The notes under the pieces are model-generated. The model worked only from the letters and a program-made list of their open reading frames with translations. It was not told where the DNA came from and ran no database searches. Shown piece after piece: positions 3,156 through 64,000 of a DNA stretch of 64,000 bases. The DNA lies in contig NC_090332.1 of the NCBI RefSeq assembly GCF_035084215.1, positions 10,106,001-10,170,000 on the forward strand, given 5' to 3'. Both the position numbers and the translations under genes were made by a program. Positions within the stretch are counted from its first letter, which is position 1. Each line of letters opens with the position of its first letter. Origin of the DNA: Heptranchias perlo. Its lineage: Eukaryota.

Positions 3156-3317
3156 GTACGGCCGTCTCCACATATACACATGCGCACCGAGGACCCTCCG
3201 TACGGCCGTCTCCACATGTACACATGCGCACCGAGGACCCTCCGTACGGCCGTCTCCACATATACACATGCGCACCGAGGACCCTCCGTACGGCCGTCTC
3301 CACATTTACGCATGCGC
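3156..3317. repeat. 44-bp tandem repeat, about 3.7 copies, containing CATGCGC NRF1-like motifs
   Basis: Unit gtacggccgtctccacatatacacatgcgcaccgaggaccctcc at 3156, 3200 and 3244, partial at 3288. Confidence 0.95.
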
Positions 3318-7287: not shown

Positions 7288-10200
7288 GTAGGTGTACTCT
7301 TTAAACATGTATGTTTGTACTTTGCTTAAGGATCTCTTCCCCTGTCTTGATCAATTCAGTTTTATTGCATCCTTAGGCCCTGGAGTTTTGACACGTGCAT
7401 TACTGAATAGTGGAGCACAGAGAGTGGTAGCTCTGGAGAGTGACCAGCAGTTTTTCCCTGCGTTACAGGTATATAGTTCATCTTTATTGACTTGATCAAA
7501 GCTAATTCATTTTTAGAAACTGAGCTCATCGCAATTTAGTGAATGGGTTACATGTGGCAGGTGAATGGCACTTGGCTTTAGATGGACCAGTGGATTGGGG
7601 ATGCCATCTCTCCAAACCAATTCCTGATTCCAACCTTTGTGTAGAAAAAGGAATGAAGGGCAAGCAATTACTGAGATAGGAGAAGCTAGAGTCATCCCAA
7701 TTTGCAGCAGGGTTCCAGTGTGGTTCCCTAGGTCAGGAAAATTCTCATTTCCTCCTTGAGTTTATTGATTTTGCTCTGCAATCATGCAAGTTTTGTTGTC
7801 TCTAAGTCACGTCAAGAAAGTTCCTCCCATTTAAACTGAAGCATCCATGGGTACGTGTCTACGCTAGTTGCTTCACATGCGATTGTGGGTCTTTTCACAC
7901 CATTACTGTCATCAGCCATGTTCATGTTGCTTTCTGATAAGGCAGAATTTAGAAGAATTTCAAGCTTGTCTCTATTTTCTCCATGTTTTTACGCAGAAAG
8001 TTGTAATAATGTGGAATGCACTGCCTGAAAGTGTGGTGGAAGCAGATTCAGTAGTAACTTTCAGAAGGGAATTGGATAAATCCTTGAAGGGGAAAAAATT
8101 CCAGCGATATGGGAAAAGAGCAGGGGAATGGAACTAATTTGATAGCTCTTTGAAAGAGCAGGCACGATTGGCTGAATGGCCTTCTGTGCTGCATCTACGA
8201 TGATACTATGAAGGATCTTGTTAAGTGAGAGTACTGTGGATATCATCTACAAGGGTAGAATGGTTTTGTTGGGTGTATCGTCTCCCTACACTCAGATATT
8301 GGAACTGGGGCTATTGTCTAAATCCGGAAAGAAATCCAAACAATCCGACATAGGATGATGCTGTAACTTATCTCGGGACTCGTCCTTTTGTAAGGGAGCG
8401 ATTAGGATGCTGTGTAACAATTCAGGGAGAAAGGATCCAATTTTTTTCATGAGCCACTAATCTTCCTGCACCTATTCCTGGGATATTGGCAGTCTTTGGG
8501 TAAGCTCTGGTAGCACTGCATCAGCCTGTCTTCCATAGCAGGGGCACCAATGTTTTTGGTTCATTTCCGAAGTTCTTCTCAGATATTTGGTCACAGGACT
8601 TGAGCGTATAATCTAGGCTAGCACTTCAGTACAATATTGAGGGACTATTGCATTGTCAGAGGTGCTGTCTTTTTCAAGTGAGAAGATAAAATAAATCTGT
8701 CTGTTCAGATTGGAATAAGATGCCATTGCACTATTTGAAGAAGACCAGAGAGCTCTCCCAGTGTCTTGCACTTCAAATGTAATTTATTGGCTTTGAAATG
8801 TCTGAGGTTGTGAAAGGTGCTTTTAAAAATGCTAGTTTGTTCTTTCTAATGAATAGTTGAACTATCTTGTATAAGGAAATATTCCTGTCCTCCCTGAGGA
8901 GGATCTAATGAATTGGATTCATAGAATAGGAGAACACACACTGAGGATAATTGAGAATGATTGCACGAGGTCCAGTGGTTAAAATTTATTCTTGGGTAAT
9001 GGTTACGATTTCAGTCTGTTGCACCAGGTTTCTCATGGACTACTGCTCACATAACTTGTGGAACATTAGTTGGTAGCTAAAAACTTGGATTTTATTGTCA
9101 CACACTTTCAAATCAAGAATGTTGAAGGCAGTAAGTACCAGAGTGAAGTATTTCAGATTTCCAGTGCTCCCTCTTGGCTTGACTCAGCACCCAGAATGTT
9201 CACAATTTCTGTCAGTAACTTTCTTTGCCTGCAGCATATGCATACCTATAATTTAGATTGGAGAATTTGGCTTTGTACTTCATAGATGCTCTGTTGCTTT
9301 AAATGCTGGAATTTGGATTTACTAACCAGTCCTGTGGCACTTGAGGTTTGGTTGGTTTAAGTTCTGCTTCTGAAAGAATGGAAGGGTTCACTGGGCATTG
9401 TGTTTTGGGACAGGTAATTTTGCCTGTGGTGTGGTATGATAGCATGTTGGTCTGGACTCTCTTTGCTTCCCTCCCCCTGCCCAACTCTCCCATTCTCTTT
9501 GAGACACACTTCAGCATTATATTGGTGTTAACACTCAGGATTTTGTAAGAGTTGCAGGTGGAGGGAGCATTAAACTAATAACAATACTGACCAAAGAAAG
9601 CTTGGTTGGACCCACAGGTGCTAAACATTTATTAATTGACATTTCACCTTCTGGATCTGCAGGTTCCAACCAGTAGTCAGATAAGGCACACCCAAATAAT
9701 ACTTTGGTTTTGAGCAAAATAGGAGTTTCTTCTCTTCAGTTATAAATAAAAATTTGGCATATAGAATGCTGGATTGAAAGATTTGTATTGTCATATTGGG
9801 GGAACGGCCTGAGTGTGAACTGATATATCCCAGCAATCTTTATCTACGATTTCATTCTACTAAATTTAATTTAGCAGCCGTTTTGGCTTACTGTTCCTTT
9901 TGTGGATAAGGATATGATAAGGGAGCTTTCTCTAATGGTTGATGTTCAGGGGAGGTGAGCTACTTTTAGACCCTCGAGATATCAGCATGAGAAATTAATC
10001 TCATTCTCCACAAATCTAGATATCCCCCTTTCAACTCACCAAATTGCATTTAAGTTTATAATGCTAGAAATGATAAATTCCTTTGATTTCTGTACTTAGA
10101 CCTAATGTTTGTGCAGAACAAATCAGAATTAGAGGATATGGAGTTCCCCTCTCCACTGTTTAGGTAACGTCCTCTGACCAATCTGGTGTGTGTAAAGATT

Positions 10201-13200
10201 GCATGGGTGACTCAATGATTCTACTCTTCCTTCCACGTCACTCCTCAAATGATTGTGCTTTACTGCAGCTGGCACTTTGTTCTGGTAAAAATTTGAATCT
10301 TGTTGGCATTTTAAGGTACAGACTCCCATTCCTTCGCTGTGTACCACGATAAATAGTTACTGATTGGTGCTTCAAAATAAAACTAGGCAGTTGTCGGCAC
10401 TTCAGAAATATCTGCGGAAGCATTTGCTAAAATATTGAAATAAACATTTAGTCCCTAGAGAAACGTTTGAATGGACAGTTGGAGGTGGTGCACTGCGACT
10501 TCTTCAAGCTGGATCCAATTGGTCGTGGCCCAATGAGACCTCCTGCCATGTTATCTGAAAAACTTTTCAATGATCTGGGAATATCGGAGGTTGCTTGGAC
10601 TGCAGGTGATTATCTCTTTAGAAATCTCTATCTGTTTTACTGAACTGAGTTGAGCAATAGTCATTTTGAATGTTTGAATTTGATTCAACAATGTTTACAT
10701 TGTAAAGATGTGGAGATGCCGGTGATGGACTGGGGTTGACAATTGTAAACAATTTTACAACACCAAGTTATAGTCCAGCAATTTTATTTTAAATTCACAA
10801 GCTTTCGGAGATTTTCTCCTTCCTCAGGCAAATGTCAGGCATTTGCCTGAGGAAGGAGAAAATCTCCGAAAGCTTGTGAATTTAAAATAAAATTGCTGGA
10901 CTATAACTTGGTGTTGTAAAATTGTTTACATTGTAAAGAATAGTAACCTGAACTTTATATGAAGGCTAACTGAGTAGTAATTTGGTTGAAAATCCACTAG
11001 ATGGTGTTCGAGTAACATTGTTCAGGCAGCAATAACTAATTATTGCAAACGTTATCAATTTGACCTTAAAAAAAAATGTATATTGCACCTTTAACATGTG
11101 TTCTATGGTAACACTGCGATTGACTGGAAGACTTGAGTGTTAAATTGACCTTTTTGCATACAAAGGTTGTCAGTTGGAAGATTTAGATTTAATGATTTAG
11201 AATTTTTAAATAGTACTTTAATAAATTGTGTGAGATTTATGCACCTTTATAGATGGGTCACCTTTTCAACTAGGCAAACCCTTCTGAGGGTTTTGGTTGG
11301 TGGGGTCTTCAAGATTTGAAAAAACAGTATTTTTTTGATTAACATTTTTGTTGTCTTAACCCACTTCTTAAGTCCATCCTTAACTCCATTATTTTATCTA
11401 TCTGCGGCATTATGTTTAACCTGCCCTTTCTCCAAGGTTTATGAGCACGTCAGTTGGGCCCACTGCAGTTGGTGTCAGCACCCCAAGGTTAGGGAGGGGA
11501 AAGTTAACCGAGGTTCCTGCTCCTGATAGCTATCCAGCAGCCTTCTATGTGGATGGTGGGTGAGGACCGGATCGGGCTTGGGCGTTTGTGCCCCCATAGT
11601 CGGCTAGTCTGCTGACGCTGTGGAGGCTCACAGGTGAAGTCTGACCACTTGGTTGATATATAGGACAGTACCTCACACTTGTGGAACCATATCCCAGCAA
11701 GGAGTTAACACCCTCAGGAGAGAATAAGGTGGTTTGGTGGGGGGGGGAGGTGGGCGAATAAGGTGGTATGGGCATGGCATGAATGGATTTTGATTTGTGC
11801 TTTAGACAAATTTAAGTATTACATTTTGTTAGATTTTTAAAAAATATATAGATGGACTATTGTATTAAGAAATTCCAGTTCTCTTTCCTAGATATTCCAA
11901 TAAAAGTAGTTGGAATCTTTCCACAAAAAAATGAACGGAATATGCTTTGGAAGCTTGTTTATGCTTTGTTCGAACGGATTTCCGTGTTTCAGCATGGGAG
12001 AATAGAAATTAACATGTTCATCAGTGAAAAAGAATACACGGTATGTTTAGTGATCTCTTTGAAGCCCTTGAAACGTCCTCTTGTGAGTCGTGCTTTGAAT
12101 TCAGTTGTTGAAATTGAGCATTTTATTATTATTTGTAGAAGCTGACAGCAGAGCCTGGAAACCTGAAACATTATCAGGCATTGAGTGCTTTGTGGCAGAT
12201 GGCTTGTGAAATACAGTTGTTGCACAAGGTGAGAATTTGTCTTTGTGTTTGTTTTTAATACCAAGAGTGTAAAATGTGGACAGTGCTTTTATTTGCAGTT
12301 ATTTTAGTTCTCTTTAAGTGACCGGGGGTTCTCTTCATACATACACTTTAAATGGAGGTGAAGTATATGAAACACTGATGCTTTTCCTAATGGTCATATG
12401 TAGTACAAATCACATCACTGCATCACATCTTTCCATTGCAAACTGCAACTGGACTCTGGCTTTGTTTGGGGTGGTCTACTCGAGGATCCACTGCCAGAGT
12501 TTGGAATGTCATTACCATGAAAACACTCTGGGGTTAAAGTGGTCCCAGTGTAACCTTGTATTCTGTTTGATGTGGACCTTCATATTTATCACCACAATGC
12601 AGATTGAATGGGCTCAAGGGTCTGAGCTGAAAACAATCTGGCATTGGGATTCCCATTCGGTTTTAAGACCTGCAGATGGGCAATGCACTTGCCATTATTT
12701 GAATTGTTTGTATTTTTACTTCCTTTGGTATGATGTAGGGTTTCAGCTTACTTTACCTTGTTTCCTCTTTTTTTTTAATAGTAAAAACAGAAATGATTCG
12801 GAGCACTTTTTTTGTAACCTACTGCACTCTGTCTGTAACACATTGTATCGAGTTTTAGAATAGCTCATATACTGGTCTACTGTTTGATACCCCCAGCAAA
12901 TTATATCAAAATTGTTTTTTCATTCCTCTTAATGTTAAAATGATTGAGGTTTCTGGAAGTGCATTTGGTTTTCTGAAATTGATGTATATAACTGGCTGTA
13001 GCTTTTGTTAGGTGTGCAGTTTTTTTACAAAATTGTTTGAATGCAGCCATTTGGCTTTTTTTTTAAATGGATAATCTTGCTGATGAATGTTACAGATTTG
13101 AATTGTTCAGATTCCATTCAGTGTATTTAAACATGTGAAGGAATTGTGAACCATTGCTAGCAATAACCAAGAAAGGGATCTTGTGGTATATTTTAGCATC

Positions 13201-30459: not shown

Positions 30460-33400
30460 CCTGTCACCGTGTCTCCCTCGCTGCCTGTCTGTCACCCTGT
30501 CTCCCTCGCTGCCTGTCTGTCACCGTGTCTCCCTCGCTGCCTGTCTGTCACCGTGTCTCCCTCGCTGCCTGTCTGTCACCGTGTCTCCCTCGCTGCCTGT
30601 CTGTCACCCTGTCTCCCTCGCTGCCTGTCTGTCACCCTGTCTTCCTCGCTGCCTGTCTGTCACCCTGTCTCCCTCGCTGCCTGTCTGTCACCCTGTCTCC
30701 CTCGCTGCCTGTCTGTCACCCTGTCTCCCTCGCTGCCTGTCTGTCACCCTGTCTCCCTCGCTGCCTGTCTGTCACCCTGTCTCCCTCGCTGCCTGTCTGT
30801 CACCCTGTCTCCCTCGCTGCCTGTCTGTCACCCTGTCTCCCTCGCTGCCTGTCTGTCACCCTGTCTCCCTCGCTGCCTGCCTGTCACCCTGTCTCCCTCG
30901 CTGCCTGCCTGTCACCCTGTCTCGCTCGCTGCCTGCCTGTCACCGTGTCTCCCTCGCTGCCTGCCTGTCACCCTGTCTCCCTCGCTGCCTGCCTGTCACC
31001 CTGTCTCGCTCGCTGCCTGCCTGTCACCCTGTCTCGCTCGCTGCCTGCCTGTCACCCTGTCTCGCTCGCTGCCTGCCTGTCACCCTGTCTCGCTCGCTGC
31101 CTGCCTGTCACCCTGTCTCGCTCGCTGCCTGCCTGTCACCGTCTCGCTCGCTGCCTGCCTGTCACCCTGTCTCCCTCGCTGCCTGCCTGTCACCGTGTCT
31201 CCCTCGCTGCCTGCCTGTCACCCTGTCTCCCTCGCTGCCTGCCTGTCACCCTGTCTCCCTCGCTGCCTGCCTGTCACCCTGTCTCCCTCGCTGCCTGCCT
31301 GTCACCCTGTCTCCCTCGCTGCCTGCCTGTCACCCTGTCTCCCTCGCTGCCTGCCTGTCACCCTGTCTCCCTCGCTGCCTGCCTGTCACCCTGTCTCCCT
31401 CGCTGCCTGCCTGTCACCCTGTCTCCCTCGCTGCCTGTCTGTCACCCTGTCTCCCTCGCTGCCTGCCTGTCACCCTGTCTCCCTCGCTGCCTGCCTGTCA
31501 CCCTGTCTCGCTCGCTGCCTGCCTGTCACCCGGTCTCGCTCGCTGCCTGCCTGTCACCCGGTCTCGCTCGCTCGCTGCCTGCCTGTCACCCGGTCTCGCT
31601 CGCTCGCTGCCTGCCTGTCACCCGGTCTCGCTCGCTCGCTGCCTGCCTGTCACCCGGTCTCGCTCGCTCGCTGCCTGCCTGTCACCCGGTCTCGCTCGCT
31701 CGCTGCCTGCCTGTCACCCGGTCTCGCTCGCTCGCTGCCTGCCTGTCACCCGGTCTCGCTCGCTCGCTGCCTGCCTGTCACCCGGTCTCGCTCGCTCGCT
31801 GCCTGCCTGTCACCCGGTCTCGCTCGCTCGCTGCCTGCCTGTCACCCGGTCTCGCTCGCTCGCTGCCTGCCTGTCACCCGGTCTCGCTCGCTCGCTGCCT
31901 GCCTGTCACCCGGTCTCGCTCGCTCGCTGCCTGCCTGTCACCCGGTCTCGCTCGCTCGCTGCCTGCCTGTCACCCGGTCTCGCTCGCTCGGTGCCTGCCT
32001 GTCACCCGGTCTCGCTCGCTCGCTGCCTGCCTGTCACCCGGTCTCGCTCGCTCGCTGCCTGCCTGTCACCCGGTCTCGCTCGCTCGCTGCCTGCCTGTCA
32101 CCCGGTCTCGCTCGCTCGCTGCCTGCCTGTCACCCGGTCTCGCTCGCTCGCTGCCTGCCTGTCACCCGGTCTCGCTCGCTCGCTGCCTGCCTGTCACCCG
32201 GTCTCGCTCGCTCGCTGCCTGCCTGTCACCCGGTCTCGCTCGCTCGCTGCCTGCCTGTCACCCGGTCTCGCTCGCTCGCTGCCTGCCTGTCACCCGGTCT
32301 CGCTCGCTCGCTGCCTGCCTGTCACCCGGTCTCGCTCGCTCGCTGCCTGCCTGTCACCCGGTCTCGCTCGCTCGCTCGCTGCCTGCCTGTCACCCGGTCT
32401 CGCTCGCTCGCTCGCTGCCTGCCTGTCACCCGGTCTCGCTCGCTCGCTCGCTGCCTGCCTGTCACCCGGTCTCGCTCGCTCGCTCGCTGCCTGCCTGTCA
32501 CCCGGTCTCGCTCGCTCGCTCGCTGCCTGCCTGTCACCCGGTCTCGCTCCCTCGCTCGCTGCCTGCCTGTCACCCGGTCTCCCTCCCTCGCTCGCTGCCT
32601 GCCTGTCACCCGGTCTCCCTCCCTCGCTCGCTGCCTGCCTGTCACCCGGTCTCCCTCCCTCGCTCGCTGCCTGCCTGTCACCCGGTCTCCCTCCCTCGCT
32701 CGCTGCCTGCCTGTCACCCGGTCTCCCTCCCTCGCTCGCTGCCTGCCTGTCACCCGGTCTCCCTCCCTCGCTCGCTGCCTGCCTGTCACCCGGTCTCCCT
32801 CCCTCGCTCGCTGCCTGCCTGTCACCCGGTCTCCCTCCCTCGCTCGCTGCCTGCCTGTCACCCGGTCTCCCTCCCTCGCTCGCTGCCTGCCTGTCACCCG
32901 GTCTCCCTCCCTCGCTCGCTGCCTGCCTGTCACCCGGTCTCCCTCCCTCGCTCGCTGCCTGCCTGTCACCCGGTCTCCCTCCCTCGCTCGCTGCCTGCCT
33001 GTCACCCGGTCTCCCTCCCTCGCTCGCTGCCTGCCTGTCACCCGGTCTCCCTCCCTCGCTCGCTGCCTGCCTGTCACCCGGTCTCCCTCCCTCGCTCGCT
33101 GCCTGCCTGTCACCCGGTCTCCCTCCCTCGCTCGCTGCCTGCCTGTCACCCGGTCTCCCTCCCTCGCTCGCTGCCTGCCTGTCACCCGGTCTCCCTCCCT
33201 CGCTCGCTGCCTGCCTGTCACCCGGTCTCCCTCCCTCGCTCGCTGCCTGCCTGTCACCCGGTCTCCCTCCCTCGCTCGCTGCCTGCCTGTCACCCGGTCT
33301 CCCTCCCTCGCTCGCTGCCTGCCTGTCACCCGGTCTCCCTCCCTCGCTCGCTGCCTGCCTGTCACCCGGTCTCCCTCCCTCGCTCGCTGCCTGCCTGTCA

Positions 33401-35320
33401 CCCGGTCTCCCTCCCTCGCTCGCTGCCTGCCTGTCACCCGGTCTCCCTCCCTCGCTCGCTGCCTGCCTGTCACCCGGTCTCCCTCCCTCGCTCGCTGCCT
33501 GCCTGTCACCCGGTCTCCCTCCCTCGCTCGCTGCCTGCCTGTCACCCGGTCTCCCTCCCTCGCTCGCTGCCTGCCTGTCACCCGGTCTCCCTCCCTCGCT
33601 CGCTGCCTGTCTGTCACCCGGTCTCCCTCCCTCGCTCGCTGCCTGTCTGTCACCCGGTCTCCCTCCCTCGCTCGCTGCCTGTCTGTCACCCGGTCTCCCT
33701 CCCTCGCTCGCTGCCTGTCTGTCACCCGGTCTCCCTCCCTCGCTCGCTGCCTGTCTGTCACCCGGTCTCCCTCCCTCGCTCGCTGCCTGTCTGTCACCCG
33801 GTCTCCCTCCCTCGCTCGCTGCCTGTCTGTCACCCGGTCTCCCTCCCTCGCTCGCTGCCTGTCTGTCACCCGGTCTCCCTCCCTCGCTCGCTGCCTGTCT
33901 GTCACCCGGTCTCCCTCCCTCGCTCGCTGCCTGTCTGTCACCCGGTCTCCCTCCCTCGCTCGCTGCCTGTCTGTCACCCGGTCTCCCTCCCTCGCTCGCT
34001 GCCTGTCTGTCACCCGGTCTCCCTCCCTCGCTCGCTGCCTGTCTGTCACCCGGTCTCCCTCCCTCGCTCGCTGCCTGTCTGTCACCCGGTCTCCCTCCCT
34101 CGCTCGCTGCCTGTCTGTCACCCGGTCTCCCTCCCTCGCTCGCTGCCTGTCTGTCACCCGGTCTCCCTCCCTCGCTCGCTGCCTGTCTGTCACCCGGTCT
34201 CCCTCCCTCGCTCGCTGCCTGTCTGTCACCCGGTCTCCCTCCCTCGCTCGCTGCCTGTCTGTCACCCGGTCTCCCTCCCTCGCTCGCTGCCTGTCTGTCA
34301 CCCGGTCTCCCTCCCTCGCTCGCTGCCTGTCTGTCACCCGGTCTCCCTCCCTCGCTCGCTGCCTGTCTGTCACCCGGTCTCCCTCCCTCGCTCGCTGCCT
34401 GTCTGTCACCCGGTCTCCCTCCCTCGCTCGCTGCCTGTCTGTCACCCGGTCTCCCTCCCTCGCTCGCTGCCTGTCTGTCACCCGGTCTCCCTCCCTCGCT
34501 CGCTGCCTGTCTGTCACCCGGTCTCCCTCCCTCGCTCGCTGCCTGTCTGTCACCCGGTCTCCCTCCCTCGCTCGCTGCCTGTCTGTCACCCGGTCTCCCT
34601 CCCTCGCTCGCTGCCTGTCTGTCACCCGGTCTCCCTCCCTCGCTCGCTGCCTGTCTGTCACCCGGTCTCCCTCCCTCGCTCGCTGCCTGTCTGTCACCCG
34701 GTCTCCCTCCCTCGCTCGCTGCCTGTCTGTCACCCGGTCTCCCTCCCTCGCTCGCTGCCTGTCTGTCACCCGGTCTCCCTCCCTCGCTCGCTGCCTGTCT
34801 GTCACCCGGTCTCCCTCCCTCGCTCGCTGCCTGTCTGTCACCCGGTCTCCCTCCCTCGCTCGCTGCCTGTCTGTCACCCGGTCTCCCTCCCTCGCTCGCT
34901 GCCTGTCTGTCACCCGGTCTCCCTCCCTCGCTCGCTGCCTGTCTGTCACCCGGTCTCCCTCCCTCGCTCGCTGCCTGTCTGTCACCCGGTCTCCCTCCCT
35001 CGCTCGCTGCCTGTCTGTCACCCGGTCTCCCTCCCTCGCTCGCTGCCTGTCTGTCACCCGGTCTCCCTCCCTCGCTCGCTGCCTGTCTGTCACCCGGTCT
35101 CCCTCCCTCGCTCGCTGCCTGTCTGTCACCCGGTCTCCCTCCCTCGCTCGCTGCCTGTCTGTCACCCGGTCTCCCTCCCTCGCTCGCTGCCTGTCTGTCA
35201 CCCGGTCTCCCTCCCTCGCTCGCTGCCTGTCTGTCACCCGGTCTCCCTCCCTCGCCCTCTGCCTGCCTTCCTGCCACCCTGTCTCCCTCGCTCTCTGCCT
35301 GCCTTCCTGCCACCCTGTCT
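30460..35320. repeat. 4.9-kb GC-rich minisatellite with 28-, 32- and 36-bp unit domains
   Basis: Units ctgtcaccctgtctccctcgctgcctgt (28), ctgtcacccggtctcgctcgctcgctgcctgc (32) and ctgtcacccggtctccctccctcgctcgctgcctg(c/t) (36). Confidence 0.98.
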
Positions 35321-63754: not shown

Positions 63755-64000
63755 CCCCCCCCCCCCCCCCGCCTCTTTTTCTCCCCATCACCTACCCCGC
63801 TCCTCCTCCTCTTTTCCTTCCTCCTTTTTCTCCTTCCTCCTTTTTCTCCTTCCTCCTTTTTCTCCTTCCTCCTTTTTCCCCCTCCTCCTTTTTCCCCCTC
63901 CTCCTTTTTCCCCCTCCTCCTTTTTTCCCCCTCCTCCTTTTTCCCCCTCCTCCTTTTTTCCCCCTCCTCCTTTTTCCCCCTCCTCCTTTTTCCTTCCCCC
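63755..64000. repeat. Polypyrimidine tract with ~16-18 bp tandem repeat, running off the window
   Basis: Poly(C) followed by (ttttctccttcctcct)/(ttttcccctcctcct) units. Confidence 0.92.

Follow-up and report, generated by a model that had tools for sequence, protein, structure and literature searches.

Minimal head-to-head insertion of a Penelope-like element in a TFB2M intron of the shark Heptranchias perlo, and counts from its family that bear on paired priming

As described for Penelope-like elements that carry an endonuclease (EN+ PLEs), insertions combine inverted pLTRs, an optional one-sided tail of 30-40 bp, a target-site duplication (TSD) and palindromes at the junctions (PMC3846280; PMC8557442). 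In Adineta, the Pen2a/Pen2 elements have head-to-head inverted termini, a tail at one end, a TSD of 8-10 bp, junction palindromes and a parent in partial tandem (PMC3846280). Self-priming fold-back has been proposed as the origin of such structures (Arkhipova 2013, PMC3846280), and resolution by the endonuclease as the origin of the tail (Craig 2021); where Craig 2021 and Frangieh 2024 address the matter, they call the origin of PLE inverted repeats and tails unresolved. The protein of PAc, a Poseidon element of Anolis carolinensis, nicks and extends both target strands in vitro, is a predicted dimer and begins synthesis at two internal sites on the RNA between which the tail lies, and its insertion is independent of ribozyme cleavage (Frangieh 2024, PMC11167929). 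Between the reverse transcriptase (RT) and the endonuclease (EN), a CX2-5CxxC linker defines Neptune and Nematis and is absent in Penelope and Poseidon, according to the clade descriptions in Craig 2021.

Hammerhead ribozymes (HHRs) recur in these elements. Metazoan PLEs carry minimal forms with a CUGANGA core, a bulged base before stem II, a G10.1-C11.1 pair, a palindromic 15.2/16.2 and no loop 3, and in Schistosoma dual motifs of this kind, one per strand, are separated by 100-700 bp (Cervera and De la Pena 2014, PMC4209133). Non-LTR retrozymes are non-coding, PLE-derived units with a type I HHR, whose units are repeated head-to-tail in tandem and hold two or more HHRs in sense (Li 2026, bioRxiv 10.64898/2026.07.22.740005).

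Here we analyse a window of 64,000 nucleotides from the shark Heptranchias perlo (contig NC_090332.1, positions 10,106,001 to 10,170,000; coordinates without a contig are those of the window), in which an intron of TFB2M holds a palindromic insert. We hypothesize, with a probability of roughly 0.7, that a young autonomous PLE left the insert as a minimal head-to-head insertion, formed by both nicked strands priming on the element's 5' UTR, and that the hammerhead motif is kept inactive in the hairpin predicted for the pre-mRNA. The features of the locus are these:

10450-10605, plus strand: TFB2M coding exon upstream of the host intron, with its GT donor at 10606-10607
10692-10708, plus strand: left copy of the direct repeat (59 of 70 family copies have a TSD of 12-13 nt)
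10707-10743, minus strand: PLE tail of 37 nt, unit positions -37 to -1 before the ATG of the ORF, on the left arm only
10744-10834, minus strand: left arm, PLE 5' UTR -128 to -38, containing the minus-strand hammerhead motif (10793-10833)
10835-10839, no strand: junction spacer TCAGG, one exact genome-wide match
10840-10930, plus strand: right arm, PLE 5' UTR -128 to -38, the tail-less end, by match to the parent unit
10841-10881, plus strand: hammerhead motif of the minimal type I, in sense orientation within the TFB2M pre-mRNA, with cleavage predicted at 10875|10876 following CUU
10923-10939, plus strand: right copy of the direct repeat (TSD), from the inverted/direct repeat search and the family TSD survey

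An inverted-repeat search found the two 91-nt arms to be 100% complementary around a spacer of 5 nt, as a sequence-only reading of the window had described them; the next-best inverted pair within 9000-13000 is 24 nt long at 75%. The left arm runs 37 nt beyond the palindrome, which makes the insert asymmetric (224 nt), and a direct repeat of 17 nt flanks it, of which the last 12-13 nt are probably the true TSD and the remainder microhomology with the element's end. The spacer and the CA that follows repeat 10824-10830, and the spacer is likely a templated insertion; the junction as a whole matches its own genome exactly once and is unique. The host gene had been named as TFB2M from the letters alone, and this stands: the exon (10452-10604) matches human TFB2M chains in phmmer (E = 1e-14), and two contigs span precisely 10450-10605. 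These contigs come from runs labelled "RNA?", none of which is on record as RNA, and their missing cover of the flanking intron carries no evidential weight. The distance of about 140 nt first given between the donor and the insertion holds for the arm (138 nt), but the insert itself already begins some 100 nt past the donor.

Perfect palindromes are a known class of artefact, no contig spans the centre of this one, and a fold-back read had been named beforehand as a possible refutation. Against an artefact of assembly or read fold-back, the junctions between flank and element are both crossed, in the outward-facing orientation and with 0 differences, by contigs from two DNA runs (the runs are from the same sample as the assembly and hence not independent of it), the insert has a TSD and an asymmetric tail, and 70 of 70 head-to-head copies examined share the architecture, each with a TSD of its own. 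We regard an artefact as scarcely credible.

The parent of the insert was located through cores spaced 3,081 bp apart. Tandem units of this length occur at three loci (L091, L092 and L094), in the tandem or partial-tandem pLTR organization of PLEs, and each unit carries a 902-aa ORF that is open in 5 of 5 complete units examined; along contig C1, tandem full-length units lie at L091:1466-9501, L092 and L093/L094, near 3.12, 4.44 and 4.46 Mb. The ORF contains DKG, YIDD (532), a CX4CxxC linker (CHGNLCKTC at 753) and VVY..C..C..YIG (VVYLIRCRKGCPRAWYIG at 790), with two cysteines inside GIY-YIG. Pfam recognizes RVT_1 in it (E = 3e-10); GIY-YIG drew no Pfam match at E<=0.1 and was identified from its motif and from relatives labelled PF01541. 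Among named relatives, shark proteins match best, at 80-96% identity. Positions 10707-10834 match the autonomous unit exactly from -128 to -1, ending one base before the ATG, and the right arm matches -128 to -38 exactly; by these matches, the insert is two head-to-head 5' UTR stumps of an autonomous PLE, with the tail on one. An RT plus a GIY-YIG at the C-terminus, both in a single ORF, together with an inverted 5'-truncated copy, a tail at one end and a TSD, are what an EN+ PLE insertion comprises. The sequence-only reading had called the insert Penelope-derived and had predicted linkage of its terminus to PLE ORFs; the arms are indeed attached to intact RT + GIY-YIG ORFs. By its linker motif and the cysteines of its GIY-YIG, rather than by a tree, we assign the ORF to the Neptune/Nematis type, and the CX2-5CxxC linker, which Penelope and Poseidon lack in the published clade definitions, rules out that clade in the strict sense.

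Set beside the Adineta elements as published, the shark family has the same head-to-head termini, one-end tail, TSD, junction palindromes and partial-tandem parent; unlike them, the arms of the window's family are cut to 90-130 nt of 5' UTR, the TSD is 12-13 bp, and thousands of young copies permit counts that favour twin priming over self-priming. With PAc it shares an HHR in the terminal region and, presumably, two RT start sites bounding the tail. In the PAc element as reported, the HHR contains the start of the ORF and reverse transcription begins 111-118 nt within that ORF, whereas in the shark PLE the HHR and the tail lie wholly in the 5' UTR, which ends at the ATG.

The hammerhead motif called on both strands from the letters alone is present (10841-10881, plus; 10793-10833, minus), as the only two in the window and against 0 in 100 shuffles. 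As read on the plus strand, stem I pairs 10841-46 with 10876-81 and includes two adjacent G-U pairs; the core CUGAGGA (10847-53) and a bulged A (10854) follow, then stem II (10855-59/10863-67), GAAA (10868-71), GC, U16.1 and U17. The catalytic core, stems I and II and the palindromic 15.2/16.2 of a minimal type I hammerhead are all there in the sequence. Of the stem III once read in AAGCUU, the palindromic AGCU remains, with no loop and no stem III proper. The motif resembles the metazoan PLE forms as described in PMC4209133 in its CUGANGA core, bulged base, G10.1-C11.1 pair, palindromic 15.2/16.2 and missing loop 3, and departs from them in a weaker predicted stem I and in the U at 17. A search of Rfam, recommended earlier with Hammerhead_1 in mind, gave 8 matches at E<=1, none of them a hammerhead family (all are generic long-hairpin miRNA models below their gathering scores), as is expected for a motif without stem III. 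Across 14 hand-picked variants, with four stem II pairs fixed by the search pattern, 94.8% of cells are paired versus 91.3 +/- 0.9 in shuffles, and 2 of 11 stem pairs change on both sides, a number that 122 of 500 shuffles reach; such pairing-consistent variation across subfamilies lends the motif modest support. The monomer folds as a hammerhead at -7.3 kcal/mol; in a cofold of two monomers the dimer hammerhead is not the minimum-energy structure, a result that is uninformative.

A 91-bp perfect duplex is a plausible substrate for ADAR editing, and the core and stems of the hammerhead are intact; on these two points could rest the earlier proposal of a functional switch in the TFB2M pre-mRNA, by self-cleavage when the hairpin opens or by ADAR/Dicer regulation. 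But each strand has one motif without stem III, which leaves it no partner for dimerising in cis, transcription reaches the antisense arm before the sense one, and a hammerhead fold forced in the hairpin context comes to -104.2 kcal/mol versus -172.1, a cost of about 68 kcal/mol. The window copy is identical to its mobile parent, showing no sign of host selection, and in another organism an orthologous contig follows 10302-10708 and then turns to unlike sequence, so that the element is absent from that intron, though the site is not a clean empty one. Related ribozymes argue the same way, a single minimal HHR having stayed uncleaved in Cervera 2014 and the PAc HHR having required protein in the assays of Frangieh 2024. 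We consider a switch very improbable. Given its single sense copy, the perfect antisense transcribed before it and the predicted fold cost, the motif is most likely inert in this pre-mRNA. That the ribozyme travels with its own antisense inhibitor is literally so, but as a by-product of a known insertion geometry repeated at thousands of loci.

In its own genome (3.25 Gb) the insert has 865 candidate matches, and scoring of 40 gave identities of 92-100% in every case across most of its length. The genome-wide copy count that had been recommended came to 9,608 exact matches of a 38-nt core; a generic hammerhead core has 71,808-72,493 matches (~72,000), and compact head-to-head junctions number at least 3,002 across subfamilies versus 2 control matches. 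Copies for closer study were the first 100 core matches on contig C1 and three sets picked by centre or ribozyme core; since sampling lay mostly at the start of C1 and needed an exact motif, young copies are favoured. Duplicates were dropped (L115 and L116, equal to L114; L201, equal to L200; L173-L175, equal to L048, L099 and L118), as was L164, the pair already represented by L165 but cut by the edge of its locus. The L114-L116 group (C1 15.34-15.37 Mb) holds one compact insertion in three copies at intervals of about 15.4 kb and represents a local tandem duplication. The TSD measures 11-17 nt in 70 of 70 head-to-head copies, 30 of which were picked by likeness to the query. Young copies often lie in or beside older copies of related PLE subfamilies (L031, L039, L093:1129-1253, L097 and L140), and at L093 and L140 the young copy directly abuts the older terminus, which may reflect self-targeting.

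The two arms of a pair derive from one source: they differ at 4 of 11,573 sites (0.035%) in exact-core copies, which are a biased sample, versus 0.62% between pairs, and polymorphic sites agree in 106/106 comparisons within pairs versus 813/1386 between them. The centre is made anew at each insertion, as the unique junction of the window copy indicates, together with other centres that contain flank-derived or self-templated filler. Filler of non-element sequence, about 60-110 nt long, occupies the centres at L037:1457-1745, L128:1556-1882 and L158/L159, and at L037 it is copied from flanking DNA and resembles templated-insertion end joining.

These observations bear on whether the palindrome is copied whole, as a self-propagating non-autonomous unit of MITE-like or retrozyme-like kind. 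Its stereotyped size of about 220 nt with fixed ends among the 30 best matches, and one junction common to 410 matches, would suit such a unit; however, centres differ between copies, each pair's arms hold their own source variants, arm length is graded continuously up to whole 3-kb units, and about half of the insertions are single arms. We think this reading improbable, at odds of a few in a hundred. The copies do not share one internal sequence, by which we reject a MITE or a self-copying palindromic element. The non-LTR retrozymes, as characterized in Li 2026, are likewise non-coding and PLE-derived with a type I HHR, but their head-to-tail tandems hold at least two HHRs in sense, whereas the window insert is head-to-head with one motif per strand, and a retrozyme is rejected as well.

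The preferred reading, a minimal head-to-head insertion primed from both strands, draws its evidence from the outer ends of the family's copies. In a hand tally of head-to-head pairs chosen regardless of their outer ends, with the 30 query-biased best matches set aside, 91 of 96 have one end with the tail (tail+) and one without (tail-): 30/32 in the C1 sample, 24/26 at new loci with the commonest junction, 12/13 in the set with an AGATCT centre and 25/25 in older subfamilies (p ~1e-21 versus 50%). The 5 exceptions comprise a tail-/tail- pair, a pair ending at +4/-11 and three pairs in which one end is short and atypical. Among single arms (n=22) both ends occur, 8 being tail+ and 14 tail-, so that -38 appears to be a priming site in its own right; independent choice of ends would yield about 46% mixed pairs.

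The 5' limits of the arms seem to follow the promoter. Among 80 arms (those outside L091-L094, complete at the edges and of at least 95% identity), 27 start at -133 to -126, with 12 at -131, which is TATA+30 (TATAAAT). In a subfamily with its TATA 46-48 nt above the core rather than 40, 19 of the 40 short arms have their start at a TCATTT initiator-like motif, 15-19 nt above the core (44 of its 84 arms ran past the TATA). Because the stops move with the TATA in two subfamilies of differing TATA-ribozyme spacing, the 5' stop appears to track the TATA/promoter and not the ribozyme, the start site being read from motifs. Ends set by the ribozyme are rejected: 0 of 80 arms start near its predicted cut (-92).

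At the commonest junction (410 matches), the cDNA end AAATGTTT is nearly self-complementary, and its 2-nt loop comes from the tail- arm at 12 loci and from the tail+ arm at 9 (21 resolved loci; 9 of 30 rows were left unresolved by the script). Over 28 pairs, the longer arm is the tail- one in 9 and the tail+ one in 4. These counts speak to the published interpretation, by which the second arm is self-primed from one folded-back cDNA (or an antisense template) and the tail is left by endonuclease resolution. Fold-back accounts for identical arms and for the matched truncation points of long pairs (e.g. -734/-734 and -1959/-1965) equally well as twin priming, and it explains palindromic centres, of which the perfect AGATCT-centred junction has 198 matches. 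Against it, 12 of 21 loci take the loop from the tail- arm, tail- arms often carry sequence missing from the tail+ arm, a tail- cDNA cannot serve as template for the tail, single tail- arms inserted between TSDs point to direct priming at -38, and in a few older pairs (L212, L227, L254) the two arms disagree at subfamily-diagnostic sites. Fold-back fits the tail- loops and the longer tail- arms only if later centre deletions and spacer inversions are invoked; unequal arms could stem from later deletions at the palindrome centre, and inversion of the spacer could scramble the loop's orientation. With the end pairing, the TATA-tracking stops and a loop from either arm favouring twin priming, we judge fold-back unlikely, at perhaps one chance in five. 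The arms of older pairs at L212, L213, L227 and L254 differ in the core N7 (C/G) and the stem II loop (A/T), and one listed compact junction likewise differs between its arms at diagnostic sites; the four pairs possibly derive from two different template RNAs.

In L1 twin priming, both target strands prime on the element RNA, which leaves an inversion inside the TSD; the second priming falls at a variable internal site and a different segment is copied. The shark PLE would resemble L1 in the priming of both target strands on element RNA, and would differ in that both sites are fixed, 37 nt apart, and the same segment is copied, giving a palindrome. We favour, at slightly better than even odds, a dimeric RT/endonuclease that primes both nicked strands at these two 5' UTR sites, each strand at its own site, with cDNAs that prime each other. 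The GIY-YIG domain would cut the target with a stagger of 12-13 nt, the length of the TSDs observed. Of the two 3' ends, one would then prime immediately ahead of the ATG (giving tail+) and one 37 nt farther upstream (giving tail-), where the ends are seen, by analogy with the priming in Frangieh 2024, whose in-vitro element is a Poseidon of another clade than the parent PLE. On a promoter-initiated transcript both cDNAs would reach the RNA 5' end, and stop, after 90-130 nt, the observed stops lying about 30 nt below the TATA, in the manner of retroviral strong-stop DNA from a motif-inferred start. Identical cDNA 3' ends would anneal by short self-complementarity or templated filler, as the observed junctions suggest, and prime each other's second strand. 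Templated filler is of the kind left by polymerase theta. The outcome in TFB2M would be a passive intronic hairpin, presumably neutral, that is spliced out, the splicing of the upstream exon being observed. In the literature searched, mostly papers outside subscription, no title or abstract opening was found that proposes twin priming or strong-stop cDNA for PLEs.

The sequence-only reading took the identity of the arms as a mark of very recent insertion. The subfamily of the window copy is young, by its low arm divergence (the 4 in 11,573 above) and open ORFs, and the autonomous family is probably still active; but arms are born identical, so perfect arms do not date this copy, and its 0 differences in 91 bound divergence only below 3.2%. 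In two runs, DNA contigs continue unbroken across both TSDs and on into the element, which suggests that the sequenced individual has no empty allele, bearing in mind that Logan contigs drop rare variants and that the sample is possibly the assembly's source. Runs from three other organisms (X11, X12 and X18) match the element's end (10707-10810) with 0 differences over 70-104 nt, and in them the TFB2M exon is uncovered at 80% likeness; in X9, which holds a TFB2M orthologue, no element contig was found in the 65% of the run read. This pattern could reflect horizontal transfer among sharks, contamination or a seeding limit.

On its own the window locus is minor, an ordinary gene feature and one of at least 3,002 compact mirror-image junctions, and its insertion architecture has already been published for PLEs; the value of the shark family is mechanistic. 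Its counts of end pairing, loop origin and TATA tracking discriminate between fold-back and twin priming, and they predict directly what the in-vitro PLE assay already in use should show; with open ORFs and thousands of young copies, the family is a ready test system. Paired priming, if true, would provide one rule for the tail, the inverted pLTR and the intron hairpins of sharks, and would explain why only tandem copies give full-length progeny. If many of the inserts are intronic, sharks would carry a sizeable load of endogenous dsRNA from them, of a kind comparable to inverted Alus.

Elsewhere in the window, a pyrimidine-rich and GC-rich minisatellite of about 4.9 kb, with units of 28 and 36 nt, occupies 30460-35320 and causes the strong skew at 30-36 kb, and short tandem repeats with 44-nt and 16-nt units lie at 3156-3317 and 63802-63993.
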